A stretch of DNA of 64,000 nucleotides from an uncultured Candidatus Micrarchaeota archaeon (GTDB taxonomy: Archaea > Micrarchaeota > Micrarchaeia > Burarchaeales > Fermentimicrarchaeaceae), in NCBI GenBank assembly GCA_903884505.1, contig CAISET010000027.1:1211-65210 (forward strand). Direction: 5' to 3'. Positions 35,054 through 47,556 of this stretch are shown here, in pieces (the first letter of the stretch is position 1; each line of letters opens with the position of its first letter). The notes under the pieces were generated by a model. The model was not told where the DNA came from, made no database searches, and was given only the letters and a program-made list of their open reading frames with translations. The translations under genes were made by a program, and so were the position numbers.

Positions 35054-35928
35054 TGGACGATTCACGGCTTCTCGCAGAAGCGCGCAAGGGATATGCCTAT
35101 GAGAAGAACCCGCTCGTCTCGGTCTGCATACCAACCTTCAACAGGGGTAAGCTTCTTGCCGAGCGCACAATCCCGTCGGTCCTGCGGCAGACTTATAGGA
35201 ACTTCGAGATAGTCATAGTCGGTGACGGCTGCACGGACGATACCGCGAAAAGGCTGCGCGCGCTCGGCGATTCCCGCATCCGGTTCCACAACTTCAAAAA
35301 GCGGAGCAGCTACCCTGCCGACCCGCTGGAGCGCTGGTGCGTTGCCGGAGTTCCCCCGTTGAATGCCGCGATCGACATGAGCCTGGGCCGCTGGATAGCG
35401 CCAATGGGCGATGACGACGAGTTCCTACCCAACCATATTGAAGCGCTCCTGCGCTTTGCGCAGAAGAATGACCTGGAGCTCGCCTATGGCGCGGCTGATG
35501 CGGAAGGGGAGCCGGAATCCTGGAAGCGCATCGGAGAATATCCCCCCAAGCAAGGCCAGATAACGGACTCTGCGGTGATGTACCGTTCGGAGCTGCGCTG
35601 CTTCAAATATGATGAGGAATGCTGGAGGACCAGGACGCCCTCGGACTGGGCGCTTTTCTCCAGGATGATCCGCGCCGGAGTCCGCGTTGGTTTCTTGGAC
35701 ATGGTCATCACAAGGCATCACTTCTCGAAGAGGCGGCCGCTCAAGCAGATGCGCCGGCACCTTGAGTTGCAGGAAATCGAACGCCTGCGCCGCGAGATTG
35801 AGGAGTACAAGGAGCGCGAAAAGCGTTACCGGCCGGCCAGGAGATTGTACGACGCGCTCACCAATCCGGTGGATGCCGCGCGAAAGATAAAGAAGCGCAT
35901 TATGAAGAGAGCCCCCAGAGGGATTTGA
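35053..35928 (+). CDS. Glycosyltransferase family 2
   Basis: PLVSVCIPTFNR, VGDGCTD, GDDD; C-terminal coiled coil. Confidence 0.92.
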   Translation: MDDSRLLAEARKGYAYEKNPLVSVCIPTFNRGKLLAERTIPSVLRQTYRNFEIVIVGDGCTDDTAKRLRALGDSRIRFHNFKKRSSYPADPLERWCVAGVPPLNAAIDMSLGRWIAPMGDDDEFLPNHIEALLRFAQKNDLELAYGAADAEGEPESWKRIGEYPPKQGQITDSAVMYRSELRCFKYDEECWRTRTPSDWALFSRMIRAGVRVGFLDMVITRHHFSKRRPLKQMRRHLELQEIERLRREIEEYKEREKRYRPARRLYDALTNPVDAARKIKKRIMKRAPRGI

Positions 35929-36082
35929 ACCCTCGACCTATCGCTTACGAGCCCTTTCGCGTCAATTTTCCGTTAACGCTTTTAGGATGTCGAGCGACGA
36001 GCGGAACGCGAGGAGCGTCCGCGCAAGCGGCGACACCGAAAAGGGTTACGAGGCGATCGCTCTACCACTGAGCTATAGGGGC
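35910..36082 (-). tRNA. tRNA-Thr(CGT) with a 101-nt intron at 37/38 (35946-36046)
   Basis: Exons read GCCCCTA TAGCTCAGTGGTAGAGC G ATCGC CTCGTA | A GCGAT AGGTC GAGGG TTCAAAT CCCTC TGGGGGC T, a complete cloverleaf. Confidence 0.9.
35966..36048 (+). repeat. Structured dispersed element, copy E1 (inside the tRNA-Thr intron, antisense to the tRNA)
   Basis: TTTTCCGTTAACGCTTTTAGGAT...CCGAAAAGGGTTA, same ends as E2-E4. Confidence 0.9.
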
Positions 36083-36143
36083 GATTGCGAAGGTAGGTTG
36101 TGCCGATAGATTATTTAAAGCGTAGCGGGGCCAAACCTAAACG

Positions 36144-37130
36144 ATGGTGTTCTCCATCCTTCACTGGCTCCCTTCAGCCATTGCGGCAGTCCTGGTGATA
36201 GCGCTTGCTTTTGCCAGGGGAAGGGAACGCAACCTCGCGCTCGGAAGCCTGATGGCGGTCTTCGCCATCATCGGCCTGGCTGGCTACCTGCAGGCGGGCG
36301 ATTACAATTTAACGCCGCTCGATTTCCACACTCTTCATGCCATGCTCGGGATTGCCACACTCCTGGTTTCCCTCGCAGTCTTCGCATACGCGATGCTCGT
36401 GAGAAGGAAGGATGGGGAGGCGCAGTTCCATTGCTGGCCCGGCTACCTTGCCGCGGCTCTCGCGGCAGTCACCCTACTGATGGGCCTGCTGCTCCTCCTC
36501 GGGCTCGCGCCGGGAGAAACCGGGCCCGTGAATTTGAGCGCGCAGGTGCCTGCCTCCGGCACGCTTCCAGAAATGGAAGCAACTGAATTCCAGGGGATTG
36601 CGCTCACGCCGCTGAGTGCGCAAGGCAATACCGAAATCGCGGGAACGCAACACATAAACAGGAGCAGTTACCGGCTCCAGGTCACGGGCCTCGTGGAGAG
36701 GCCGATGAACTTCACCTACGACGACCTTCTTCAGTTTCCCGCCTACTCGGAAGCCGCATACATGCCATGCGTGGAAGGATGGGGGTTCATGGCGAAATGG
36801 ACGGGCTTGAGGCTGGGCGACTTGCTCGACAGGGCGGGCGCGAAGCCGGAGGCGCGGTACATAATCTTTTACGCGGTCGATAACTATTCGACGAGCCTGC
36901 CAATCGATTACGTGAAGGCCAACAACATCCTTCTCGCTTACGGAATCAACGACGTGACGCTTCCCCCGGAGAGGGGATTCCCGTTCCAGGTCGTGGCCGA
37001 GAGCAAGTACGGCTATAAGTGGGCGAAGTGGGTTGACAGGATAGAAGTTTCCGCGGAGGATAAGCCGGGCTACTGGGAGTCAAATGGCTACAGCAACTCC
37101 GCGAATGTCGGGGAGCTGCCGTACGGGTGA
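36144..37130 (+). CDS. Molybdopterin-dependent oxidoreductase (sulfite oxidase family) with N-terminal TM helices
   Basis: YRLQVTGLV, MPCVEGW..AKWTG, YSTSLP, RGFPFQVV...YGYKWAKWV, GYWE..GY. Confidence 0.9.
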   Translation: MVFSILHWLPSAIAAVLVIALAFARGRERNLALGSLMAVFAIIGLAGYLQAGDYNLTPLDFHTLHAMLGIATLLVSLAVFAYAMLVRRKDGEAQFHCWPGYLAAALAAVTLLMGLLLLLGLAPGETGPVNLSAQVPASGTLPEMEATEFQGIALTPLSAQGNTEIAGTQHINRSSYRLQVTGLVERPMNFTYDDLLQFPAYSEAAYMPCVEGWGFMAKWTGLRLGDLLDRAGAKPEARYIIFYAVDNYSTSLPIDYVKANNILLAYGINDVTLPPERGFPFQVVAESKYGYKWAKWVDRIEVSAEDKPGYWESNGYSNSANVGELPYG

Positions 37131-37160
37131 GTAAGCCGCTTTTTGAAACTGAGTGCTGTG

Positions 37161-37649
37161 CTAGGGGTTCATGATAAGGACGGCGAGGTTGAGGGCTGCC
37201 GCAAAGCTCCCCCAGAGGAAATACGGCACGAGGAGGTAGGCCGCGGTCTTTGAGATGCGGTAGAATAGAATTATTGTTGCCAGGAGCGTAACCCAGAGGA
37301 GCGCAATTACCGCAAAGCCGTAAAGTGGGGAGTGCATGCCGAAGAACGCGATGGACCAGAGGACGTTTAGGAAGAGCTGTGCCGCGAAGAGGCTGAGCGC
37401 CCACCTTACTTCGTGCTTCTTCACTCCTTTAGTCCAGACCAGGTAGGCGGAGATGCCCATGAGCGCATAGAGCGCCACCCACGCGGGGCCGAAGACCCAG
37501 CCGGGAGGGGTGAAGAACGGCTTGTTCAGGGCAGCGTACCAAGTCGGGATTGAAGGTATCGTGAAAATTGAGCCTATGACTCCTGCAATCTCGCAGGCGA
37601 CTATCCCCGCGAGCATGCCCGGGATGTCGCGCGTTCCTATCCTCTCCAC
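37161..37649 (-). CDS. tspO: TspO/MBR family protein
   Basis: WYAALNKPFFTPPGWVFGPAW, QLFLNVLWS, LVPYFLW..FAAALN. Confidence 0.94.
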   Translation of the reverse strand: MERIGTRDIPGMLAGIVACEIAGVIGSIFTIPSIPTWYAALNKPFFTPPGWVFGPAWVALYALMGISAYLVWTKGVKKHEVRWALSLFAAQLFLNVLWSIAFFGMHSPLYGFAVIALLWVTLLATIILFYRISKTAAYLLVPYFLWGSFAAALNLAVLIMNP

Positions 37650-37653
37650 AGGC

Positions 37654-37929
37654 TCACTTCTTTCCAGTCACTTTTATCAGGTGATAGCCGAACTGCGTCT
37701 TCACCGGCGCGGAAACTTCGCCTGGCTTGAGCGAGAACGCCGCATCCTCGAATTCCTTCACCATCTGCCCCTTCGAGAAGAAGCCCAAATCGCCCCCGTC
37801 CTTCTTGCTCGGGCACGATGAATATTTCCTTGCGAGCTCGGCGAAATCCTTCCCTGCCTTCAGTTCATTCACCACGTGGTTCGCCTCTTCCAGGGAAGAA
37901 ACGAGTATGTGGCTTGCTCTTACCATCAT
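37654..37929 (-). CDS. ppiC: Parvulin-type peptidyl-prolyl isomerase
   Basis: [33 protein letters not shown]. Confidence 0.95.
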
Positions 37930-38020
37930 TTTAACACCTCAGCCTATGGCGAACAGATGCAGATATGGCTGGCGCGTATTTTAATACCGAGCAGTTCAAA
38001 TTCGCATGAGGTTGATTTGA

Positions 38021-38380
38021 ATGAAACTTCCATTGTATGTATTCGTTCTTGTCTTGATTGCTGCATTGGTTTTCGCACAGGAGGAGCAGCCCACTGTCGG
38101 GACATTCGGCTGCAGCCCGGGGTTAGTTGAGGATCCACCGTGCGCCGCACAATGCTGCGGGAATAACGGTGGGCAATACTCTTTCGCCGAAAGAACGTGC
38201 ACTGTAAACTCGAGCATCCGATGGAATGCGACAATGTCCTGTGAAAGCGTCATGGGATGCTGCAAGGAATCGGCCGGCAACCCGACCTGCAGCACTGGCC
38301 CAGCCCTGATATTGGCGGGCCTGGCGACTTGCGCAATGCTGGCCGGTTATACCCGTAGGACGAAGCCCAGGCAGCCGTAG
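38021..38380 (+). CDS. Small secreted Cys-rich protein with a C-terminal anchor
   Basis: Signal peptide, CC pairs, CSTGP-TM-basic tail. Confidence 0.75.
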   Translation: MKLPLYVFVLVLIAALVFAQEEQPTVGTFGCSPGLVEDPPCAAQCCGNNGGQYSFAERTCTVNSSIRWNATMSCESVMGCCKESAGNPTCSTGPALILAGLATCAMLAGYTRRTKPRQP

Positions 38381-38393
38381 GGAAGCGGATTGC

Positions 38394-39629
38394 TTACTTC
38401 GCGAACTTCTTCGCGTTTACCTTCAGGATTTCAATACCTGGCAATTTTTCGCCGCTCATGAACGCAAGCACGGCACCGCCCGCGGTTGAGATGTGGTCCA
38501 CCGCAATTCCCAGGTCAAAGGCGACATTTCCCATGTGCCCTCCGCCGATGAGGGTGTAGGCCTTGGAGCGCTCCATGGCGAACAGTATTTTCACCGTTCC
38601 CTTCAGGAAGGTGGGATTCTCATACATGCCCATCGGCCCCTTTGAGAGGACCGCGCGCGACCTCATTATCTCCTCGGTGTAGACTGCGATGGTCTTCGAG
38701 CCTATGTCAACCGGCGGGTATTTCGCGAGCTTCTTGTCGCTCACCAATACCTCCTCGCGTCCCCCGTATGAGATTGCAATGTCTATCGGAAGCTCGATGC
38801 GGTCCTTGAACACCGCCTCTATCTTCTTTATCTTATCGAGCAGCTTGTCGAGCTCCTCGCCTTTCTCCGAGATTGCAGCGCACGCCTCCCTGGGCACGAG
38901 GCCGCGCACGTGCAGGAAAGCCTGCGCGACCGCGCCCCCCACGAGAATCTTGTCAACCGTGTTCTTCTGCAGCGTGGTCTCAACTACTTTCACGACCTCC
39001 TTCAGCTTGGAGCCGCCGATCACATAGACCGACGGCCTCCTCCCTTTCTCCACCGCGCGGTACATGGCATCCATCTCCTTCTCAATCACCATGCCTGCGC
39101 ATGCCGGAAGCACTACCGAGAAGCCGGTGACTGACGGCTGGGAGCGGTGCGAGACGGAGAAGGCGTCGTTTATGAAGATGTCGAACTTCGGCGCGAGAGC
39201 CTTCACGAGCGATGTCTCCGCGCCCTTCTCGGGCTCCATGTTCTCATTGTCCTCGTCCAGGAACCTCGTGTTCTCGAGCACCAGGACCTCGCCGGGCCTC
39301 AGGGCGTCTATGGCTGCCATTGCCTTCGCTCCCGTCAGGTCATCGCAGAAGATTACCTTCTGCGGCTCGAGCGCCTGCCCCAAGATTTCCGCATGCTTCC
39401 TCAGCGTGACGCAGTCGTCCTGCCCCTTCCTCCCCTGGTGGGAGATTGCCACGATTTTCGCAGCGCCTTTGAGCGCGGAGAACGTGGGCTTGTAGACCCG
39501 TATTCTCATGAACTCCAGCGGCTCCCCCTTCTCGCCGAGCGGGGAGTTGAAGTCGCATCGGATTAGGACTTTCTTTCCCGTGAAGTCGAAGTCCCTCATT
39601 GTCTTGAAGCCGCCAACATCGTTCGCCAT
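38394..39629 (-). CDS. pgk: Phosphoglycerate kinase
   Basis: RCDFNSP, SHQGR, LENTRF, NDAFSVSHR, GPMGMYE, HISTAGGA. Confidence 0.96.
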   Translation of the reverse strand: MANDVGGFKTMRDFDFTGKKVLIRCDFNSPLGEKGEPLEFMRIRVYKPTFSALKGAAKIVAISHQGRKGQDDCVTLRKHAEILGQALEPQKVIFCDDLTGAKAMAAIDALRPGEVLVLENTRFLDEDNENMEPEKGAETSLVKALAPKFDIFINDAFSVSHRSQPSVTGFSVVLPACAGMVIEKEMDAMYRAVEKGRRPSVYVIGGSKLKEVVKVVETTLQKNTVDKILVGGAVAQAFLHVRGLVPREACAAISEKGEELDKLLDKIKKIEAVFKDRIELPIDIAISYGGREEVLVSDKKLAKYPPVDIGSKTIAVYTEEIMRSRAVLSKGPMGMYENPTFLKGTVKILFAMERSKAYTLIGGGHMGNVAFDLGIAVDHISTAGGAVLAFMSGEKLPGIEILKVNAKKFAK

Positions 39630-39637
39630 CAAATCAC

Positions 39638-40723
39638 CTAGCAAAGGAAGGGGGTTTCCTTCCCCTTCTCGCCAACGAGGATTGCAGCGGGAACCTCGCC
39701 CGCGCCAATCATCAGCGCCTTGTCTGTCTTCGCCATGGAGGTCTTCACATCGCAGACGTTCATGACCGCGCGTATTGCGTCAACCGTCTCCGGGACCACA
39801 TCCGACTCGTTGTGGATTGCCATGATATAGATGAGCTCATCGCCCTTCACGGAGATGGAGTCCGCCCACACTAGTATCTTCATCAGGTCGTCCCTTCCGC
39901 CGCGGAGGGATGCCGTGTCCCTGCCATAATCCATGATGTGCGAGGTGCTCAGGAACCCGTCAACGCCCGAGATGAGCTTCACCCTCGGCGTGTTCTGGAA
40001 GACCTTTATCACCGCATCCTTTGTCGCTGGCTTCTTGAGCTTCGCCCTGATTATGTGCATGTGCATCAGCGTGGTTGAGCACTTGATTGCAACGGTTGTT
40101 ATCGGCACTTCGGGGATTACGGTCTGCACATCGGGCCCCTGGTGGGAAGGAATAGTCAGTTCCGGGACGAGCGAATTTATCGGCCCGGTCTTTATGTCGT
40201 TCGGGTCAGCGGCCCTCCTCGCGAGCACCACGAATGACTCCGCAATCCCGAACGCCTGGTGGATTGCCCAGAGAGTCCTCGAAAGGCCGGTCGTGTTGCA
40301 CGAAACTACGCGGACGAACTGCTTCCCCTTCGCCTTGTCGTAGTTGCACTGTGCGGTGAAGGATACCTCGGCGACGTCTTTCTTCTCGCCTCCCTGGAAT
40401 ATTGCCTTCTTGCCCAGTTTCTGGTAGAGCGGCTTGTAGGTCACGCCAACCTTCCCCGGCGTGCAGTCGAGAATCACGTCGCAGCTCTTGAACAGGTCCT
40501 CTGCGAGGCCTGCAGCCGGCACGCTGAACTTCTTGAAATTGTCCAATGACGCCTGGTCAGGCACGTAGACTTTGTACCCCTTCATCACCGCGACCTTCGC
40601 GGAATAGTCCGGGTGCTGCTTCACAACGCCGAGCAGCTCCATGTCGTCCTGCTTGGAGACCGCGTCAGCCACCCTTTTCCCAATCACACCGTAGCCGTTG
40701 ACTGCAACCTTCACCTTAGCCAT
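39638..40723 (-). CDS. gap: Glyceraldehyde-3-phosphate dehydrogenase, archaeal type II
   Basis: NGYGVIGKRVADA, FQGGEK, VVSCNTTGL, RRAADP, SHQGPDV, HNESDVVPE. Confidence 0.96.
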   Translation of the reverse strand: MAKVKVAVNGYGVIGKRVADAVSKQDDMELLGVVKQHPDYSAKVAVMKGYKVYVPDQASLDNFKKFSVPAAGLAEDLFKSCDVILDCTPGKVGVTYKPLYQKLGKKAIFQGGEKKDVAEVSFTAQCNYDKAKGKQFVRVVSCNTTGLSRTLWAIHQAFGIAESFVVLARRAADPNDIKTGPINSLVPELTIPSHQGPDVQTVIPEVPITTVAIKCSTTLMHMHIIRAKLKKPATKDAVIKVFQNTPRVKLISGVDGFLSTSHIMDYGRDTASLRGGRDDLMKILVWADSISVKGDELIYIMAIHNESDVVPETVDAIRAVMNVCDVKTSMAKTDKALMIGAGEVPAAILVGEKGKETPFLC

Positions 40724-40826
40724 TCTCGACCACCTCAGCGGATTAACAGAAACAGACCTCTATGTTGTAGGAAGGTATAATTTAAAAGTATTTGCCGCCC
40801 GCCAAGGCGAAGAGATTATCGCCGGC

Positions 40827-41219
40827 TCATAAGTATGCGCGAGCCATGGCGACGAACCGCTCGGTTTCGAAGACGTAGGCCTCGGCCTCGCGGTAGCTGA
40901 ACCTCTTCCGCCCATAATCCGCGCCGCTCTTGTCCGTCATGGCCCTTGCGAGCAGGCGCTTAAATGCGGCTTCCTTGGCCTGAATTTTGTTCTCGCGCAG
41001 AAGGTCTGCAAAAAGCGCTGGCGCATCTTCATGCCGCGTGGACTTGCGGCCGAGAAGCCTCATCGTGAGGGCGTCGTTCGCCCGTATCAGGGCATGGATG
41101 GCCTGCGCGCAGCATACGGCCGCCCGCGACTCCTCCGACTGCGCTTCCGCAAGGCTGTGCTTCGCCGAAGCCAGCCATCCCTCGGCTTCTTTCAGTGCGC
41201 GGAGTGGCTCGTCATTCAT
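40827..41219 (-). CDS. HEPN-domain protein
   Basis: Helical; QAIHA..ANDAL...STRHED...ADYG...EAEAY pattern; coupled to the MNT gene. Confidence 0.82.
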   Translation of the reverse strand: MNDEPLRALKEAEGWLASAKHSLAEAQSEESRAAVCCAQAIHALIRANDALTMRLLGRKSTRHEDAPALFADLLRENKIQAKEAAFKRLLARAMTDKSGADYGRKRFSYREAEAYVFETERFVAMARAYL

Positions 41220-41749
41220 TTCAATCTCACCGCCCCTTTCCCCTTCAGGAAGTCCTTGAGCTCCCTTTCGCTGCCGAATTTCAGGGGCACCAGCTTCGTG
41301 CCGTATGCCTCGTAAACCCTGAAGACGAGCCCCTCGGCGTCGAACCCTTTGCCGGCAAGGACTGCGAGGTCGATGTCGCTCGACAGCTTCTCCTCGCCGC
41401 GCGCGACGCTCCCGAAGAGGTAGGCTTCCCTCACCCCATTCATGCGCCCCAGCATCCCTTTCAGCCTCGCCGCCGTGAATGCCTGCGGCGACGAGCTGGC
41501 GCCAAGGATTCCGGCAAGCGAGCGCGCGTATGGCGAGTCATGGTACCTGACGACGACGCTGCGGCCGAGCTTCCCTGTTTCCACGACGCCTGCGCACTCC
41601 CAGAGCCGGACGATGCGCCATGCCGAGGCGAACGGGACGCCTGCCGTCCTCGCAAGCTCGCTTATGCTGAAGTCGCGCTTCGGGAACCTCTGCAGCGCCG
41701 AGAAAAGCTCGCGCGAGCCGCGGCGTGCCAGAAGCTCAATCGTTTCCAT
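41216..41749 (-). CDS. wHTH plus minimal nucleotidyltransferase (MNT) protein
   Basis: SISELARTAGV HTH; LFGSVARGE...SDIDLAV. Confidence 0.9.
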   Translation of the reverse strand: METIELLARRGSRELFSALQRFPKRDFSISELARTAGVPFASAWRIVRLWECAGVVETGKLGRSVVVRYHDSPYARSLAGILGASSSPQAFTAARLKGMLGRMNGVREAYLFGSVARGEEKLSSDIDLAVLAGKGFDAEGLVFRVYEAYGTKLVPLKFGSERELKDFLKGKGAVRLK

Positions 41750-41859
41750 TATAAAACCTATCCATCTCTGGATAATGTTATCCATTTTTGGATAATAGGT
41801 TAATAAGCATTACGCCCGCCAAAGCAAAGAAATTATCGCCAGTAGAAAAAAGAAAGGCG

Positions 41860-41988
41860 TCACCCCGTATCTTCCATCTCGGAGCAGGGCTCACACGCCT
41901 CTTCCTCGTAGGTTACCTTCTCGCAAAATCCAAAGTCCAGAAGGGTCTTGCAGTACTCGATGCACCCGCAGGTTCCTATATGGCACAT
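41860..41988 (-). CDS. Putative 42-aa Cys-rich acidic microprotein
   Basis: MCHIGTCGCIEYCKTLLDFGFCEKVTYEEEACEPCSEMEDTG*; coupled via GAGTGAGATG; T-tract follows. Confidence 0.5.
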   Translation of the reverse strand: MCHIGTCGCIEYCKTLLDFGFCEKVTYEEEACEPCSEMEDTG

Positions 41989-41989
41989 C

Positions 41990-42067
41990 TCACTCATCCC
42001 CTGGCTCCGGCATTTCCATTTCCGGTTCCGGGCCCTCGGGCCCCATCGGCATCGGTCCTATTCCCAT
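41990..42067 (-). CDS. Putative 25-aa Pro/Glu/Met-rich microprotein
   Basis: MGIGPMPMGPEGPEPEMEMPEPGDE* preceded by GGAGTGG. Confidence 0.4.
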   Translation of the reverse strand: MGIGPMPMGPEGPEPEMEMPEPGDE

Positions 42068-42319
42068 TTTTCCACTCCGCCACCGAGGCGGCTGGCACCT
42101 GTTCTAGGGCCAGTGAAGGACCAGTCAGAAACAGACCATAAAGAACGATCGCAACATCGGCCCTGTCCAGGTTCCCCTACCTGTTAAGCGGGGACTTCCC
42201 GAACAGATACCAGCGTTGCGTCTCTGTCATGGCGCATTTATTTCGCATTTTGGGTATATAAATATGCGCCCACGCCGTAATCGCCCACGCTTTTTAACCA
42301 GAAGCTGCAGAAATTAGGC

Positions 42320-43828
42320 GTGAAAGCGAAGACGGTTGTCCAAACCCCTGCCCAGGCGACTCTTCATGAGGCAAAGCAGGAGAAGACAGTTGCGAAATCT
42401 TCTCCTCAGGAGGCGAAGCAGGAGAAGACAGTTGCGAAAAAATCCTCTCGGGAAACTCTTCAGCAGGCTCAGCAGGAGGTTCAGGCCGAGGTGAGGAAGA
42501 TTCCGAATGCCGGGAACTCCAAATACTCCGGAGAGCAGCTGAAGACGGTGTTAGGCAACCTGGAGAGGCTTGTGGATAATGCCAAAATCGCGGAAGGCGA
42601 TGGCAAGCCGACCCGCAACAAGCTCTGCATCGAGGCGGTCGGGGATTCCGGAGTCTGCGCAGGTACGCTTGTCAAGTATGTCTGGAACAAGAAGGGAACG
42701 CATCTTCCAGACAAATTCAAGAAGTGGGCGGCAAGGATACTCAACAACTACCGGAGGATAGGCAGGCGCATTGATGGTAGCTTCAAGTTTACCGATGCGC
42801 GGTTCGAGAACACTATTTCATACCTGGAGAAGCGCGTCGAGGGGCTGGAGAAGGGGGAAGGCGACAACAAGCCCTCTTTCCTAGATATCTGCAAGGAGGC
42901 CGGCGCGCTGCCGGAAGCCAACATGAACGGGATGACGCTCTGCAGGTATATCACGGTCAAGCGCCTGAAGGCACGCATTCCGAAGGAATTCCGGAAAAGG
43001 GCAGCTGCCGCGCACAAGGCGTATGAGGCGATTGAGAAGAGGTGCGCGATGCCCGACTCGCAGAAATACAGCGAGGAGCAGTTCAGGAAGGCCGTAGATT
43101 ATCTTGAAGGGAGGATTAGCCGGCTTGAAAAGAATATCAGCATGCCGCTGCCGTCGTTCACTAACCTCTGCAAAGGCGCGAAGAAGGTTTCGGGAATCAA
43201 GTGGAGGACAATTTCCGAGTATCTGAAGTCCGAGGAGAGCCAGGAATTCATCCCGGGAAGCCTGCAGCCCAGAGCCATTGTGCTTTATGCGCGCTACCTG
43301 GAGCTGGACAGGAAAAAGAAGGAGATGGCGCTAAACCACGTTGAGGGCCGGCTCACAAAAATAAGGGACGGGCACCTTCCGCTCGAATACATCGGGGTTA
43401 TGTGCGATGAGGCGGCTGCCCTCACCGGGATGGGCGGAGAGACCATACGCGAGCGTTACATACTCAACAACAGGTCCGGCAGGAGAGGCCTTCCGAACAC
43501 GAAACTGCAGCAGCAGGCAGCGAGGATAGATGCGCTTTATGATGAGCTGAAGGATGAGAAGGAGGTCAAGAGTGCTGTTGAAAAGGCCAAGAAGACGATG
43601 GAACGGGGCGAGGGGAGCGCTGACACGATAAGGATAGGAAAGCGCGAAGTGAATGTTTCCGTCATCTTCAGCAAGGTCTGGGTGGACTTCCAGCTTTCGA
43701 GGTTGGAGCAGGTAGAGCTGGTATATACCGTGGAGAACGACCCAAGATATGCGGCGGCGAAGGAAAGGCTGGGCACCGAAGCCTGGTGGGAGCAGCTCAA
43801 GAAAAAGGCGCGGATGGGGGCAGAGTGA
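42320..43828 (+). CDS. Hypothetical protein with four ~90-aa internal helical repeats
   Basis: 502-aa basic ORF; TTTTTAA about 28 bp upstream; visible internal repetition. Confidence 0.8.
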   Translation: MKAKTVVQTPAQATLHEAKQEKTVAKSSPQEAKQEKTVAKKSSRETLQQAQQEVQAEVRKIPNAGNSKYSGEQLKTVLGNLERLVDNAKIAEGDGKPTRNKLCIEAVGDSGVCAGTLVKYVWNKKGTHLPDKFKKWAARILNNYRRIGRRIDGSFKFTDARFENTISYLEKRVEGLEKGEGDNKPSFLDICKEAGALPEANMNGMTLCRYITVKRLKARIPKEFRKRAAAAHKAYEAIEKRCAMPDSQKYSEEQFRKAVDYLEGRISRLEKNISMPLPSFTNLCKGAKKVSGIKWRTISEYLKSEESQEFIPGSLQPRAIVLYARYLELDRKKKEMALNHVEGRLTKIRDGHLPLEYIGVMCDEAAALTGMGGETIRERYILNNRSGRRGLPNTKLQQQAARIDALYDELKDEKEVKSAVEKAKKTMERGEGSADTIRIGKREVNVSVIFSKVWVDFQLSRLEQVELVYTVENDPRYAAAKERLGTEAWWEQLKKKARMGAE

Positions 43829-43835
43829 AAAGGAG

Positions 43836-44075
43836 CGCCGGGGATGGGATTTTCAGCGCACCTGAAAGCGCCTTGCCTTCAGGCGAGCGCGTTTGAACCC
43901 ATACTGCCCTTGCGGGCAACCAGATATCGCAACCCCGGTTGCGCTGGCTCGCTCGTCGTTGCCAAACGACCTCGCTCGCCGCGCATATCCTCGGTTTCGA
44001 TGCTTCCGACAGCACCGCATTCTGCGAGGACGGGATACTCGAGTCTGGCGCGTTACCTGGCTCCGCCACCCCGGC
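43836..44075 (-). tRNA. tRNA-Ser(CGA) with two introns: 37/38 (43926-44037, 112 nt) and 59/60 (43850-43891, 42 nt)
   Basis: Exons read GCCGGGG TGGCGGAGCCAGGTAACGCG CCAGA CTCGAG | A TCTGG, variable arm TGCCC GCAA GGGCA, ATGGG TTCAAA | T CCCAT CCCCGGC G. BHB motifs at both junctions. Confidence 0.9.
43936..43991 (-). repeat. Core-only copy of the structured element (E5) inside tRNA-Ser intron 1
   Basis: AGGATATGCGC GGCGAGCGAG GTCGTT TGGC AACGAC GAGCGAGCC A GCGCAACCG; ends match E4's AGGATATGCGC...GCGCAACCG. Confidence 0.75.
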
Positions 44076-44119
44076 AAAGTGAAAGTAAGATTTGCGGCGA
44101 GAAGTTTTAAAGGCAGCTC

Positions 44120-44212
44120 TTTTCCGTTAACGCTTTTACGATATGAGCGCACGAGCAGAGCGAGAGCGAGCGGGTGAACCTCGTGAGCGGTGCGCTCAAC
44201 GGAAAAGGGTTA
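44120..44212 (+). repeat. Structured dispersed element, copy E2
   Basis: TTTTCCGTTAACGCTTTTACGATAT...ACGGAAAAGGGTTA. Confidence 0.9.
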
Positions 44213-46051
44213 TTATAGTATCGTCTGCCTCGTCACCGCTCTTTCGTATTCCTTGCATGAAACTATGAACGAGGCGAGGGACCAGGCCTGGTAATGGGGG
44301 ACCGGGGCGTCAGTTCCGTCGCCGTTGTAGAGCTCCGGAATTCCTCCGAAGTTCTTTGCAAGAATGTCGCTTATCAGCGGGTAGATATAGATATTGTAGG
44401 CGCGCTCCGTGTGCCCTGCCTTAATCTCCCTCTTCGCTGCCATTGAATTGAATACGGGCCACTGGTTCCCGCGGTGGTAGCTGCCGTCGCCAACGTGCTT
44501 TTCGAAGTAGCCCACCTCGTCCGGGGCAAGGGTGCGTATTCCCTTGCCTGCGAGCTTCTCCTTGGTGAGAATAAGGATGTCAGCCTCCAGCTCCTCATCA
44601 ACCACGCCGCAGTCGAGCGCGATGAGCTGGTTTGGCGTGAGTGCCGAATACTTCGCCATTTCGCCTGTGAGCAGGTCTGCGAAGTATTTGCGCGCGACAC
44701 CGCCGAGCTTTGCGCTGCACTTGAATGACTGGAGCGCGTTGATGGCTATTGCGGATGAGCGGAGAAGCTTGTCAGCGAACCTCTCATCAAATAGCTTTGC
44801 TAGCAGCAGGCAGTCGTAGATGAAGAGCGCCTGAACCTCTATCGGGAAGCCCTCGCGCGGCGTGAACTCCGTGTCCATCCAGGTCTCGTAGGGCTTGCAC
44901 CTGACGAGGCCTTTCGCATTCTGCCTCTTGTCGATTATCTGCTCGAGCGATGCGCGGATGAGGTCCGCCTTTTCCTCGAAGAACTTCTTATCCCCAGTAA
45001 GCAGCGCGTATTCGCCCGCGCGCCTGAAAAGCCATAGAGTCCCGTCAAAGCCGCGCCAGCCCGGTGGGTCCAGGCGGTCTGCGAAAACGCCTTCGCCGTT
45101 CATGTTCTCCTTCCTCAGCCAGAGGCCGAGGATTTGGCGCGCCTTGTCGTAGAGCCCCAATTCGAAATAGGCCTCAAGCGAAATCATGGAGTCGCGGAGC
45201 CATCCCTTGTCGCCTGCGAACCAGCGGTCGCCGGAAGCGGGAAGGCAGCCGTTGAACTGCAAGGAAAGGAACTGCAGGACCGCGAGCTGGAATGCGCGGT
45301 TCAGCTCATCATTGTTAGTCTTGAGCCTGAAACGGCTGGAGAAGGTGCGGATGCGCTCGCTTTTCGCCATCTTCAGCTCCTCGTAGTTGTTCCGCAGCCT
45401 CTCGTAATTGGTGCGCGCCTCCTCAGGCGTGTTTCCGAAGCCGATGAAGAAGCGCTTCCCCTTTATTGTGCACGGGGAGAAGCACCAGCGCTCGGCGATG
45501 TCGTTGCGGTCGTAGTCCTGTGGGTAGAACTTGTAGCGGTATTGGTGCAGCGGGGAGATGTCGCCTCCGCTGTCGCCCAGAGTTGCGAAGACGCCCTGCG
45601 AGCCGATAGTTGCGCGGCCGGACTCGATGCTTGAGGAGTAGTCCGTCCAGTTATGGGAATACCTGTCCCTGATGTCGAACTCGGGCTGGAATGTGATGGA
45701 GGAGAATTCGCCGTAGTAACTTATCGCGATGGCGGGGAAGCCGTCAGGGAGGAAGATTTCCTCCGTAATCTTCTTTCCGTTTGCGTTGTAGGCCTTCTCG
45801 GCAATCACGAAATCGGCCTGGAACGAGGCCTGGTTCTCGGGGGCGAGCGCGTGGCTGTCCGCGATTGCGAACCAGCCTTCCATCAGCTTCCGCGTTCCCC
45901 AGAAGAGCCCCTGATATTTGGAAGGGTTTTCAATCTCCTTTTCCTTGTGCCGCTGGTTGCGGATTTGCTGGTGCGGAAGAAGGAGGAAGAGATTGTCGCC
46001 GTTATTCAGGAGGAAGTCGTTCGCCGGCGAGGGTTTGGCCTGAAGCCTCAT
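44213..46051 (-). CDS. Amylo-alpha-1,6-glucosidase (glycogen debranching enzyme family)
   Basis: WLRDSMISLE, DGTLW, TWMDT..TPREGFPIEVQAL, PNQL, GIRTLAP, YHRG..WP, IPELYNG, QAWSLA. Confidence 0.88.
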   Translation of the reverse strand: MRLQAKPSPANDFLLNNGDNLFLLLPHQQIRNQRHKEKEIENPSKYQGLFWGTRKLMEGWFAIADSHALAPENQASFQADFVIAEKAYNANGKKITEEIFLPDGFPAIAISYYGEFSSITFQPEFDIRDRYSHNWTDYSSSIESGRATIGSQGVFATLGDSGGDISPLHQYRYKFYPQDYDRNDIAERWCFSPCTIKGKRFFIGFGNTPEEARTNYERLRNNYEELKMAKSERIRTFSSRFRLKTNNDELNRAFQLAVLQFLSLQFNGCLPASGDRWFAGDKGWLRDSMISLEAYFELGLYDKARQILGLWLRKENMNGEGVFADRLDPPGWRGFDGTLWLFRRAGEYALLTGDKKFFEEKADLIRASLEQIIDKRQNAKGLVRCKPYETWMDTEFTPREGFPIEVQALFIYDCLLLAKLFDERFADKLLRSSAIAINALQSFKCSAKLGGVARKYFADLLTGEMAKYSALTPNQLIALDCGVVDEELEADILILTKEKLAGKGIRTLAPDEVGYFEKHVGDGSYHRGNQWPVFNSMAAKREIKAGHTERAYNIYIYPLISDILAKNFGGIPELYNGDGTDAPVPHYQAWSLASFIVSCKEYERAVTRQTIL

Positions 46052-46088
46052 GGAAGGAATTTAAACCGCGCTATTTAAATGTTGCCGC

Positions 46089-46760
46089 ATGGCACGCGCT
46101 ACCGGGTATATCGTCCTGAATTTGAAGGCATATGCAGAGTCGACAGGAAAGGGGGCGGTCAGGCTCGCGAAGATAGCTGATGAGGTCTCGCGCGAGATGG
46201 AGGTCAGGGTGATAGTCTGCGCGCAGGCGACAGACCTTTCAAGGGTTGCCAAGGCCGTGAAAATCCCCGTTTTCGCGCAGCACGTTGATGAGAAGAAGCA
46301 GGGGGCTTTTACCGGGAGCATAACTGCTGAGGCTGCGAAGGATGCGGGCGCGGACGGCACTCTTATCAACCACTCCGAGAGGAAGCTGAAGCTCGAGCAG
46401 GTGGGCGCAATAATTGCCAGGTGCAAGGAGGCGGGCCTCCTCGCGATGGCGTGCGCGGCAACGGTTGCCGAGGCCGAGGAGATAGCGAGGTTCGGGCCGG
46501 AGTTCATAGCAATTGAGCCGCCAGAGCTGATAGGGAGCGGAATCTCGGTTTCTACTGCGAATCCTGATATTGTGAAGAATTCGGTGAAGGCAGTCCATGC
46601 CGTGGCGGACATCCCCGTCCTCTGCGGCGCCGGAATCTCAAATGGCGGCGATATCAAGAAGGCGATGGAGCTCGGGGCAGCGGGCGTGCTCCTCGCGAGC
46701 GCTTATGTCAGGGCGAAGGACCCGAAGGCGCTCCTTACTGAAATGGCCAGGAACGTCTAG
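46089..46760 (+). CDS. tpiA: Triosephosphate isomerase, archaeal type
   Basis: NLKAY, AQHVD, NHSER, IEPPELIG, CGAGIS, LLASA. Confidence 0.96.
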   Translation: MARATGYIVLNLKAYAESTGKGAVRLAKIADEVSREMEVRVIVCAQATDLSRVAKAVKIPVFAQHVDEKKQGAFTGSITAEAAKDAGADGTLINHSERKLKLEQVGAIIARCKEAGLLAMACAATVAEAEEIARFGPEFIAIEPPELIGSGISVSTANPDIVKNSVKAVHAVADIPVLCGAGISNGGDIKKAMELGAAGVLLASAYVRAKDPKALLTEMARNV

Positions 46761-46762
46761 CA

Positions 46763-46844
46763 TTTTCCGTTAACGCTTTTAGGATATGGCAGCGAGCGAG
46801 CCGCAGACACGCTGCGAGCGAGCGTCGCCAACCGAAAAGGGTTA
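46763..46844 (+). repeat. Structured dispersed element, copy E3
   Basis: Same conserved termini as E1, E2 and E4. Confidence 0.9.
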
Positions 46845-46894
46845 AGGCGAAGGACCCGAAGGCGCTTCTGACCGAAATGGCGAAGAACGTCTAG
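46841..46894 (+). pseudogene. Displaced duplicate of the tpiA 3' end
   Basis: 47/54 nt identical to 46707-46760; encodes VKAKDPKALLTEMAKNV*. Confidence 0.9.
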
Positions 46895-46898
46895 GCTC

Positions 46899-46989
46899 TT
46901 TTCCGTTAACGCTTTTAGGATATGCGCCTTCGAGCGAAGCGAGAGCGAGTCGCCCTGCTGACGAGCGACGGCGCAACCGAAAAGGGTTA
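46899..46989 (+). repeat. Structured dispersed element, copy E4
   Basis: Same conserved termini. Confidence 0.9.
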
Positions 46990-47067
46990 AGGCAGACGGA
47001 AAGGTTTTTAAACAAACTAAAGTCAATTGCTCATTAGTGGCGTTCAGTAAAACCTAGAGGTGGTGTT

Positions 47068-47556
47068 GTGGGCGGGATAATGGGGAAGAGCTGGAATGAC
47101 TATATCAAAGTGATAACGCTGCCTCTGGCGGTGTGGATACTGTGGGACCTAGCTAGCTTCGTGGTTGGCATCGTGTTCGCCTCGCAGTTTACCGCTGCCG
47201 TGGCCGAGGGCGCAGATGCCACAGGGGCGGCTGTGATAATTATGGTCATGGGCCTCGTAGGGCTGCTGGTCTATGCGATAGCAGGCCTCTGGATTGGCTG
47301 GAATACGGTGAAGATGATAAAGGGCTCGTACATTGAGGCTGCCGTGGCCGCGATAATTGCCGCGGTAATCGCCACCGTCGTGTCGGTCGTCCTCGGAATC
47401 ATCTCATCGGTGATAGCCGGCGGAGTCGCAGGCCTTGCAACCATGCTGGTAGGGCTGCTAATCACGGGTGTTATTGGCCTTATACTCGCTTGCGTGATTG
47501 TGGTAATCTTGGCAGTGATAGGGGTGTTCATCGCCAAGATGATGGGCAAGAGATAG
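47068..47556 (+). CDS. Four-TM membrane protein
   Basis: Highly hydrophobic ORF after a GAGGTGG RBS; T-tract follows. Confidence 0.85.
   Translation: MGGIMGKSWNDYIKVITLPLAVWILWDLASFVVGIVFASQFTAAVAEGADATGAAVIIMVMGLVGLLVYAIAGLWIGWNTVKMIKGSYIEAAVAAIIAAVIATVVSVVLGIISSVIAGGVAGLATMLVGLLITGVIGLILACVIVVILAVIGVFIAKMMGKR

Follow-up and report, generated by a model that had tools for sequence, protein, structure and literature searches.

This work concerns a hairpin element that occurs four times within a 64-kb window from an uncultured Candidatus Micrarchaeota archaeon (C27:1211-65210 of a 1.51-Mb, 37-contig genome, G000; C numbers denote contigs), together with the two intron-containing tRNA genes beside it. 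The 23-mer that marks the left end of the element has four exact matches in the window, all on the plus strand (positions 35966, 44120, 46763 and 46899); none is expected by chance, and no match was obtained in any of 100 shuffled windows. Behind each left end lies one exact match to the 14-mer of the right end (36035, 44199, 46831 and 46976). The four copies with fixed ends that had been described from the letters of the window alone (hereafter, the original prediction) are thus real. They are called E1–E4 below and are read on the minus strand, on which both tRNA genes lie.

The first copy lies within a tRNA gene. ARAGORN, run with introns permitted, places a tRNA-Thr(CGU) gene at 35909-36082 of the minus strand (C27 c[37119,37292] Thr(cgt) i(37,101)), with a 101-nt intron between nucleotides 37 and 38 (about 35946-36046); in silico deletion of 35946-36046 leaves a plain 73-nt tRNA-Thr(cgt). 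E1 (35966-36048) forms the core of this intron, and its first two bases on the tRNA strand are the exon bases U36 and A37. The nearest paralog of E1 is likewise an intron copy (C2:180018-180101; 75 of 84 positions identical).

The second gene, tRNA-Ser(CGA) (43836-44075, minus strand), is interrupted twice: by 112 nt at 37/38 (43926-44037) and by about 42 nt in the T-loop (~43850-43891). The gene was read, and its introns delimited, by eye against tRNA-Ser(UGA) at C1:36259-36422. With both introns deleted in silico, ARAGORN called tRNA-Ser(cga) for 33 of the 64 T-loop boundary pairs tested, all 33 being near the inferred boundary. The core-only copy that had been predicted here (43936-43991, plus strand) does exist, as a degenerate copy inside the first intron, inverted with respect to the other intron copies; its transcribed strand is the GA-rich one, and the core of the copy at C15:77709 is a homolog.

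The remaining three copies are solo. E2 (44120-44212, minus strand) lies between the stop codon of a GDE_C-family open reading frame (ORF; 44213-46051, minus strand), which its 5' end abuts, and a TTTAAA box, resembling a promoter, ahead of tRNA-Ser(CGA). A single metagenome contig spans E2 and both flanks with zero differences. E3 (46763-46844, minus strand) is antisense to the triose-phosphate isomerase gene (46089-46760), 2 nt past its stop codon. It stands between two direct repeats on the plus strand: the final 16 codons and stop of the isomerase gene (46712-46760), and a diverged, non-coding second isomerase 3' end (46846-46894). The two repeats show six differences (four synonymous, two Arg/Lys), and the 49-nt match has a score of 34, reached by 0/100 shuffles. 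E4 (46899-46989, minus strand) follows.

For each of E2, E3 and E4, the nearest paralog is a tRNA-associated copy: one in a tRNA intron for E2 (C36:8741-8833; 84/93 identical), one in the tRNA-Leu(CAG) intron for E3 (C36:105681-105762; 79/82) and one in the 3' trailer of tRNA-Thr(GGU) for E4 (C29:10449-10540; 82/92). The flanks of E3 and of its tRNA-Leu(CAG) counterpart match at chance level (2/20 and 4/20), which implies that the shared unit spans exactly the stretch from the first stem base to GGAAAA.

Both tRNA genes of the window are missed by ARAGORN at default settings and by Rfam. Indeed, Rfam, in which a known family had been suggested as the thing to look for, gives no match at gathering score over the window, and at E values up to 5 over 35800-47100 it gives no match that overlaps any copy. 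There is no transposase within the 64-kb window.

Copies inside and outside tRNA genes

An alignment of 45 copies, 22 of them from this genome and 23 from relatives, was the basis of a covariance model, which gives 45 matches in this genome at E values up to 1e-3, a genome-wide count of about 45 copies that includes the 22 used in training. Forty-four were listed individually, with 40 classified and four uninspected. Thirteen of the 44 lie inside tRNA genes (ten backed by ARAGORN -i, one by a full-length Rfam match and two by eye), seven lie within ~30 nt of a tRNA end—five of these begin 0-4 nt past the discriminator base—and 20 are solo. Half of the classified copies (20/40) are in or at tRNA genes, which occupy well under 1% of the 1.5 Mb. 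The identity of the element as an intron core is well supported, and the family is tied to tRNA genes.

All 13 intron copies are oriented alike relative to the tRNA. The transcribed strand is therefore CU-rich, and the G.A pairs that the original prediction had proposed for the GA-rich core cannot form in the pre-tRNA. The inverted, degenerate copy in tRNA-Ser(CGA) shows that orientation to transcription is not absolute.

The solo copies hug the ends of ORFs. For seven of them a same-strand ORF stops between -11 and +3 nt from the element's 5' end, and four or more of these ORFs terminate at a TAA or TGA that belongs to the element; for another seven an antisense ORF stops -1 to 11 nt from the 3' end. 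Such placement can be accounted for by selection in a genome with short spacers, where an insertion must clear both the ORF and the next promoter. The solo unit is cut off exactly after GGAAAA. An element-supplied TGA also ends each of three paralogous giant ORFs with Cys-rich C-termini (C1:49207, C25:52719 and C16:77228-77358; the open frames scanned for C1 and C25 are 1429 aa and 1545 aa), and in these the element was probably duplicated together with the gene.

No conserved target word lies beside either end among the copies' flanks. Abutting direct repeats (25, 33 and 49 nt) flank three of 33 copies, all three solo, the other 30 having none beyond chance; each time the repeat consists of the last bases of an ORF, including the stop, and the element is antisense to that ORF. 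With repeats this rare and this variable in length, a general target-site duplication was rejected. We suspect slippage, or unequal exchange among the copies, as the source of the flank duplications; one copy may then have been lost. ORF-end duplications around antisense copies (the last 8-16 codons plus stop) lie in the window, around E3, and at C28:10012-10105 and C15:10325-10446. The differences between ORF-end repeats are mostly synonymous; either the dead repeat used to be coding sequence in some other allele, or the live one has changed.

Several other candidate features were set aside. A 7-nt CTCGTAA repeat around the E1 intron is at chance level (22/100 shuffles), and TTA as a 3-bp duplication was rejected because the end triplets GAA/TTC, TAG/CTA and CGA/TCG are inverted, not direct. 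Neither an autonomous long version of the element nor widely spaced pairs of its ends were found in G000, and neither was found at nine matches of an archaea-wide scan (described below) that have no exact 5' arm nearby.

Hairpin structure and predicted splicing motif

In the structural alignment of the 45 copies, the end stem is paired in 86.1% of cells, compared with 73.6% after shuffling (0/500 shuffles as high). Both-sided changes occur in eight of its 13 pairs, and the signal collapses when the partner is slid by 1-3 columns. The outermost pair is never unpaired (UA 28, CG 9, GC 5, AU 3). Pair 12-81 is mostly CG (26) or GC (15), with UA twice and UG once, which bears out the compensatory GG/CC to CG/CG swap noted in E2. 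Covariation extends to the next stem, where one pair reads CG nine times, GC six times and AU twice across 17 long copies. The four window copies all fold in the manner originally described. The two mismatches that had been called fixed fare differently. The G.G position (C.C on the opposite strand) is unpaired in 45/45 copies, while the A.G position is unpaired in only 31/44. The description as a dispersed, non-autonomous hairpin family with covarying stems and asymmetric conserved mismatches therefore stands.

On the tRNA strand, the unit reads 5'-N1N2N3-CCCTTTTC..-core-..AAAAGCG-N3'N2'N1'-(A/G)CGGAAAA-3'. Its fixed ends amount to a mini-hairpin of 31-45 nt, N'AACCCTTTT-loop-AAAAGCGTTN-ACGGAAAA, and the GC-rich nested hairpins of this genome—the "variable core"—are the grown loop of that mini-hairpin. 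The outermost triplet pairs vary (TAA/TTA, TGA/TCA, TAG/CTA, GAA/TTC, CGA/TCG and others). An element that "ends at TTA" is thus a misreading: TTA represents the outermost stem pairs, which covary with their partner, and is not a boundary rule.

The GA-rich strand folds better than its complement, by 1-6 kcal/mol, in all four window copies. G.U pairs allowed no call on which strand is under selection, wobble pairs being too scarce, and a reading of the core as a K-turn, C/D-box or H/ACA structure was dropped (no box motifs by eye, no Rfam match). Some copies have a nested module of ~39 nt, consisting of two small hairpins, inserted in the core (C2:44829-45015, C15:10325-10446, C22:43260-43384, and window positions 46946-46948). 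Several of the module's loops read UUCG on the tRNA strand, and similar GC-rich tetraloop hairpins are common around tRNA genes.

In the intron copies, the tail of the unit continues into GAAA(A)GGG, a further complement of the 5' arm that fits it better than the one within the unit. It is followed by a four-base complement of nucleotides 32-35 and by two more nucleotides. The arm CCCUUUU and GAAA(A)GGG are predicted to form the inner helix of a bulge-helix-bulge motif, and the four bases its central helix. The in-element stem and the intron inner helix are alternative pairings of a single 5' arm, a double use that probably accounts for the fixed mismatch of the in-element stem.

Five introns were checked against a strict 3-4-3 bulge-helix-bulge register. 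The central and inner helices pair at 3/4 and 7/7 positions in tRNA-Thr(UGU), at 4/4 and 6/7 in tRNA-Arg(GCG), both near-canonical, and at 2/4 and 7/7 in the tRNA-Thr(CGU) intron of E1, where the inner helix is CCCUUUU/GAAAGGG and both 3-nt bulges (UA|A) are in register. The minimum-free-energy fold of the E1 pre-tRNA is a cloverleaf whose anticodon arm is extended by the intron, with a symmetric relaxed variant of the motif.

The splicing endonuclease of the host is a 390-aa ORF with two tRNA_int_endo matches, and aligns over its full length to PDB 4fz2_A (E = 3e-141). PDB 4fz2 is the epsilon2 endonuclease of ARMAN-2, an enzyme of broad specificity (PMC3488258) that by experiment cuts both strict and relaxed motifs (PMC3488258; PMC3239211). 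By this homology the host endonuclease is of the epsilon2 type. Since an epsilon2 enzyme cleaves relaxed motifs, the relaxed motif of E1 would be a plausible substrate. We infer splicing of the copies, at the RNA level, by this endonuclease.

Gain, loss and strand bias

Among 41 genomes searched with the covariance model, 18 contain the element and 23 have no copies. Copy numbers range from 0 to 51, with 45 here and 51, 21, 17 and 15 in four relatives. Within the family, seven of the nine other genomes, from two sister genera, have none. At E values up to 1e-6, tRNA matches number 28-35 in these seven element-free genomes, against 17 (this genome), 14 and 26 in the family's three element-bearing ones. 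The low yield here, together with the failure of standard finders to detect either tRNA gene of the window, indicates that tRNAs are under-called in such genomes, and many tRNA genes of this genome are probably unannotated.

Element sites in relatives include the D-arm, the D-loop, position 37/38, T-loop introns, 23S rRNA, tRNA trailers and elsewhere. At two loci (L027 and L040, in G013 and G024), copies lie inside conserved stretches of 23S rRNA or adjoin them, and may be rRNA introns belonging to the same family. The genes for tRNA-Thr(GGU) and tRNA-Val(CAC) carry the element at 37/38 in the relative G003 and lack it there in this genome. At the isomerase locus of another relative, G004, there is no element, and ~20 nt separate the stop codon from the next gene. 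It is well supported that the element is a unit that is gained and lost.

The tRNA-Thr(CGU) intron has a longer history. In G004 it is a minimal 45-nt form of the element, and in family f8 the tRNA-Thr intron has the same architecture and a different sequence. Because the orthologs in G003 and G004 share its site, E1 is an old intron with an expanded loop and not a new insertion; recent insertion of this intron, once considered, was dropped. For E2–E4, no empty alleles were found in the contigs of four DNA runs from one study, where most joints and loose ends are paralogous copies within the same genome. Two contigs, X1 and X4, skip exactly the 101-nt tRNA-Thr intron, with a shorter side of only 26-29 nt; they probably derive from intron-less tRNA-Thr genes of other organisms.

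Duplication of the element together with its flank was seen in two relatives. Tandem arrays of a 40-nt mini-hairpin with a 58-60 nt period lie at C39:4076-4231, C33:9113-9212 and C32:347-504 of G022, and at C14:10895-10993 of G013. Overall, the arrays of these two genomes have periods of 58-66 nt and consist of the whole mini-hairpin plus a short flank in tandem, some of them inside tRNA introns: the duplication of flank and element is inside a tRNA intron in G013 and forms arrays in G022. A CRISPR-like nature of these arrays was rejected, the repeated unit being the entire mini-hairpin and flank.

The mini-hairpin extends far beyond these relatives. An 18-mer of the left end, scanned in one genome per species, gave at least 120 matching stretches, 80 of which were examined. 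Among the matches listed, 65 fall in 62 archaeal-titled records; the titles name Methanophagales/ANME-1, Methanocellales, Methanosarcinales, Thermoplasmata and Bathyarchaeia, as well as Woese-, Nano-, Aenigmat-, Alti-, Undin-, Iain- and Micrarchaeota. The arm CCCTTTT, which is not part of the query, lies just upstream in 54 of these 65 listed archaeal matches, and the closing pair is Watson-Crick in 57/57, with all four pair types represented. The arm is present in 0/18 of the bacterial-titled matches listed, the pattern expected of chance matches, and in 4/22 matches in viral contigs. Mini-hairpin lengths among the matches listed run from 31 nt (the mode) to ~86 nt. Seven listed matches are inside tRNA genes called by ARAGORN, and more are at non-canonical positions by eye. 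The claim that structure rather than sequence is selected consequently holds for the core only; the ends are conserved in sequence across archaeal phyla.

In ANME-1 and Bathyarchaeia records, the element also lies in frame inside protein genes. IS200-type tnpA genes in ANME-1 records have three such sites, each filled in some homologs and empty in others, with in-frame, stop-free inserts of 39, 39 and 36 nt; the third is a sister hairpin of different sequence. Filled and empty sites, a comparison that the original prediction had proposed, are thus seen at the DNA level in homologous genes. Since the second arm is missing, these inserts resemble read-through insertions and not introns. The sister mini-hairpin, in L182 (alignment A3 columns 334-371), reads AAAACTTTT.../...AAAAGTTTT-AT-CAAAAA... 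and has the same design; its motif also adjoins the main hairpin in L163 and L219.

Within G000, the element shows a marked strand asymmetry, as would fit a strand-specific process acting on DNA, such as had been predicted. The GA-rich strand is on the locally G-rich strand in 37/44 copies, or 21/24 clusters (binomial p = 1e-4), and in 19-20 of the 20 solo copies, depending on flank size. On the 344-kb contig C2, GC skew is positive over 0-170 kb and negative over 170-343 kb, and the orientation of the element flips with the switch. The regional skew is unexplained by coding strand. Among tRNA genes without a nearby element, 8/9 lie on the G-rich strand; among those with an intron element, 10/12 lie on the C-rich strand. 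The skew switch at ~170 kb of C2 resembles a replication terminus or origin. An orc1/cdc6 gene lies at ~13.5 kb of C16, with no clear skew switch there.

A probable mobile hairpin, its rivals and known systems

We consider it probable that the element is a mobile, non-autonomous hairpin which either forms introns spliced by the endonuclease or occupies them, and which is also dispersed as solo insertions. A single hairpin module would serve as the intron core in tRNA and rRNA genes, and the same unit would be inserted elsewhere as a solo copy. It would move as DNA, by a single-strand process specific to one replication strand. Landing in a tRNA loop would be survivable, with the element bringing half of the splicing motif and an epsilon2 endonuclease accepting relaxed motifs; solo copies would sit where a compact genome tolerates insertion, directly after stop codons or tRNA 3' ends. 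A bolder version makes the hairpin an archaeal counterpart of introners: a pan-archaeal hairpin of 31-45 nt with half a bulge-helix-bulge motif, which turns its landing sites in tRNA and rRNA genes into introns and moves between phyla, perhaps on viruses, strand-specifically and without an element-encoded transposase. We offer this version tentatively, and would sooner expect it to fail than to hold.

Profile searches of this genome, which is rated 100% complete by marker genes, turned up no mobilising enzyme. Y1_Tnp (PF01797) has 0 matches (its control was positive in 6/14 reference genomes), as has RVT_1 (control positive in 3/14); GIY-YIG has no match with a working control, and Y2_Tnp none either, although the control genomes were silent too, which makes that result uninformative. 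Of the 41 related genomes, five have Y1 matches, which do not follow the element: of the ten with at least five copies, G021 alone has one. The genome has a single TnpB gene (C16:75730-76833, a 375-aa open frame), with three tandem copies, oriented like the gene, about 100 nt past it (C16:75730-77358, L089); these copies double as the 3' end of a giant ORF convergent with the gene. If the right end of the insertion sequence just precedes those copies, the guide portion of its RNA would match the left end of the element. Of three tyrosine recombinases in the genome, one lies beside the tRNA-Leu(CAG) gene that carries the nearest copy to E3. This recombinase (C36:106404-106907, a 429-aa frame) is ~600 nt downstream of the twice-interrupted tRNA gene and may be an integrated element.

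Besides the missing enzyme, a number of points weigh against a mobile, intron-forming hairpin. No regular target-site duplication flanks the copies. The tRNA-Thr(CGU) intron site, with its element, is common to three genera (G000, G003 and G004). The tRNA introns need ~11 bases (the second arm, the tRNA-specific central helix and two further nucleotides) that are absent from the solo unit, so that simple insertion of the unit would not by itself yield a spliceable intron. Two of the five introns checked, those of tRNA-His and tRNA-Ser(UGA), misfit the strict register, the ARAGORN boundary of the latter being doubtful. Sequence conservation across phyla could mean a host function. The strand bias was measured against GC skew and is not reproduced in relatives, where, on short contigs with weak skews, nine of 20 loci agree, six disagree and the rest are ambiguous. 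Finally, the assembly is in 37 contigs, with an estimated contamination of 1.87%.

Three other explanations were weighed. The original prediction had pointed to a REP-like or HUH-mobilised element. In this view, a repetitive extragenic palindromic (REP)/REPIN or IS200/IS605-type sequence would have its GA-rich strand fold while single-stranded on the template of the lagging strand, to be cut and pasted by a Y1 HUH transposase acting in trans. Much about the element invites this reading: the conserved unpaired extension and imperfect palindrome with fixed mismatches resemble REP sequences, the GA-rich strand is the better-folding one, solo copies stand at gene 3' ends, orientation is strongly biased against GC skew, three tandem copies follow the TnpB gene, and the mini-hairpin sits within IS200-type tnpA genes of ANME-1. 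Yet no Y1, reverse transcriptase or GIY-YIG gene was found in the genome, and Y1 genes do not follow the element among relatives, which leaves the HUH hypothesis unsupported; no target word is conserved at either end, the single hairpin lacks distinct left and right ends, its sequence conservation across phyla is unlike that of species-specific REPs, and tRNA genes contain or adjoin half of the classified copies. We judge this explanation highly improbable. Equally improbable, in our view, is an RNA-mediated route, by which an excised, possibly circular intron RNA re-enters other RNAs through reversal of the endonuclease and ligase reactions, or anneals at replication forks, before a DNA copy of it is made. 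In most introns the 5' end of the element is at or 0-2 nt from the 5' splice site, the tRNA-sense strand on the C-rich strand has Okazaki-fragment polarity if the G-rich strand is leading, and an endonuclease and ligase universal in archaea would suit spread across phyla. However, no RVT_1 match was obtained, the solo unit ends at GGAAAA and not at the 3' splice site, and the in-frame ANME-1 tnpA inserts, which have no second arm, look like DNA insertions that are read through.

An explanation without mobility is unlikely, if less remote: the hairpin and its ACGGAAAA tail would be a host-functional binding or processing signal that spreads by local duplication and is kept by selection, for example to define RNA 3' ends after tRNAs, 5' exons and stop codons, or to aid intron folding or circularisation. 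Conservation of sequence as well as structure across many archaeal phyla is what such a signal would show. So is the retention of one 5' arm with two alternative 3' arms in the tRNA-Thr introns of family f8 despite their different sequence, as are the abutment of the element's 5' end (tRNA strand) on a functional RNA end in introns, in trailers and after stops, and the tRNA-Thr(CGU) site shared by three genera. A patchy distribution argues against it, with copy number varying from 0 to 51 and no copies in 23/41 genomes, including seven of the nine others of the family. Solo copies lie in both orientations to the adjacent ORF (seven each), the inverted tRNA-Ser intron copy shows that orientation is not fixed to transcription, and in-frame copies in protein genes have empty alleles in homologs. 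A mobile hairpin that forms or occupies introns thus remains the explanation that we favour.

Ever since "transposition" of introns was inferred in the Thermoproteales, it has been asked how the tRNA introns of archaea are acquired and how they move. The hairpin provides a concrete handle on this question: a short, sharp-ended, conserved unit that occurs as an intron core, as a solo insertion and in frame within ORFs, that has both filled and empty alleles and that shows a strand bias. It may help to explain the spread of archaeal introns and, if the comparison with introners were true, would be the missing vehicle for tRNA intron gain and intron transposition in archaea. We found no published description of the hairpin in the literature searched, subscription journals and supplements being outside its reach.

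Families of transposed tRNA introns were reportedly described in the Thermoproteales by Fujishima et al. in 2010. One review calls the mechanism of their transposition unknown (PMC4090602), and a 2026 Asgard preprint tests several intron routes and finds no general one (10.64898/2026.10.13.758758). The Thermoproteales families resemble the present one in the broad specificity of the host endonuclease (PMC4090602; 10.64898/2026.10.13.758758). The present family differs in three respects: its host belongs to the DPANN archaea and has an epsilon2 endonuclease of the ARMAN-2 type; what its copies share is one sharply delimited hairpin, whose sequence is conserved across phyla; and this hairpin is also found outside tRNA genes, as 20 solo copies in this genome and as in-frame insertions in ORFs of other archaea.

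REP/REPIN sequences of bacteria, which are associated with RAYT, are short, imperfect, non-autonomous palindromes with an unpaired conserved extension, present in tens of copies at gene 3' ends. The hairpin shares the palindrome and has an 8-nt tail, and its copies, like REPs, sometimes form tandem or inverted pairs. It differs in its archaeal host, the absence of a RAYT/Y1 gene, the location of half of the classified copies at tRNA genes—13/44 within them, with further copies of relatives in ORFs and rRNA—and the conservation of its ends across phyla. Being simultaneously a tRNA/rRNA intron core and a dispersed insertion, it is more interesting than a REP-like repeat. Two other classes do not fit. 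A miniature element derived from IS200/IS605 needs left and right subterminal hairpins and a target word of 4-5 nt, and here there is a single hairpin and no shared word; a classical miniature inverted-repeat transposable element is contradicted by the lack of a fixed-length target-site duplication (30/33 copies without repeats), by inverted ends that are simply the end stem, and by the failure to find an autonomous partner in G000 or at the nine scan matches.

Rickettsia palindromic elements are selfish palindromes that are found in frame in protein genes, in RNA genes and between genes. The hairpin resembles them as palindromic, putatively selfish DNA in all three settings. The hairpin is shorter (31-45 nt in minimal form), has in-frame ORF inserts only in other archaea (ANME-1 and Bathyarchaeia) and none in the window, and in tRNA genes is part of an endonuclease-spliced intron. 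The introners of algae and fungi are non-autonomous DNA elements that create introns by carrying part of the splice signal. In comparison with these, the archaeal hairpin would depend on a protein endonuclease and the bulge-helix-bulge motif in place of the spliceosome, and it leaves no regular target-site duplication; the creation of introns by the hairpin is a proposal.

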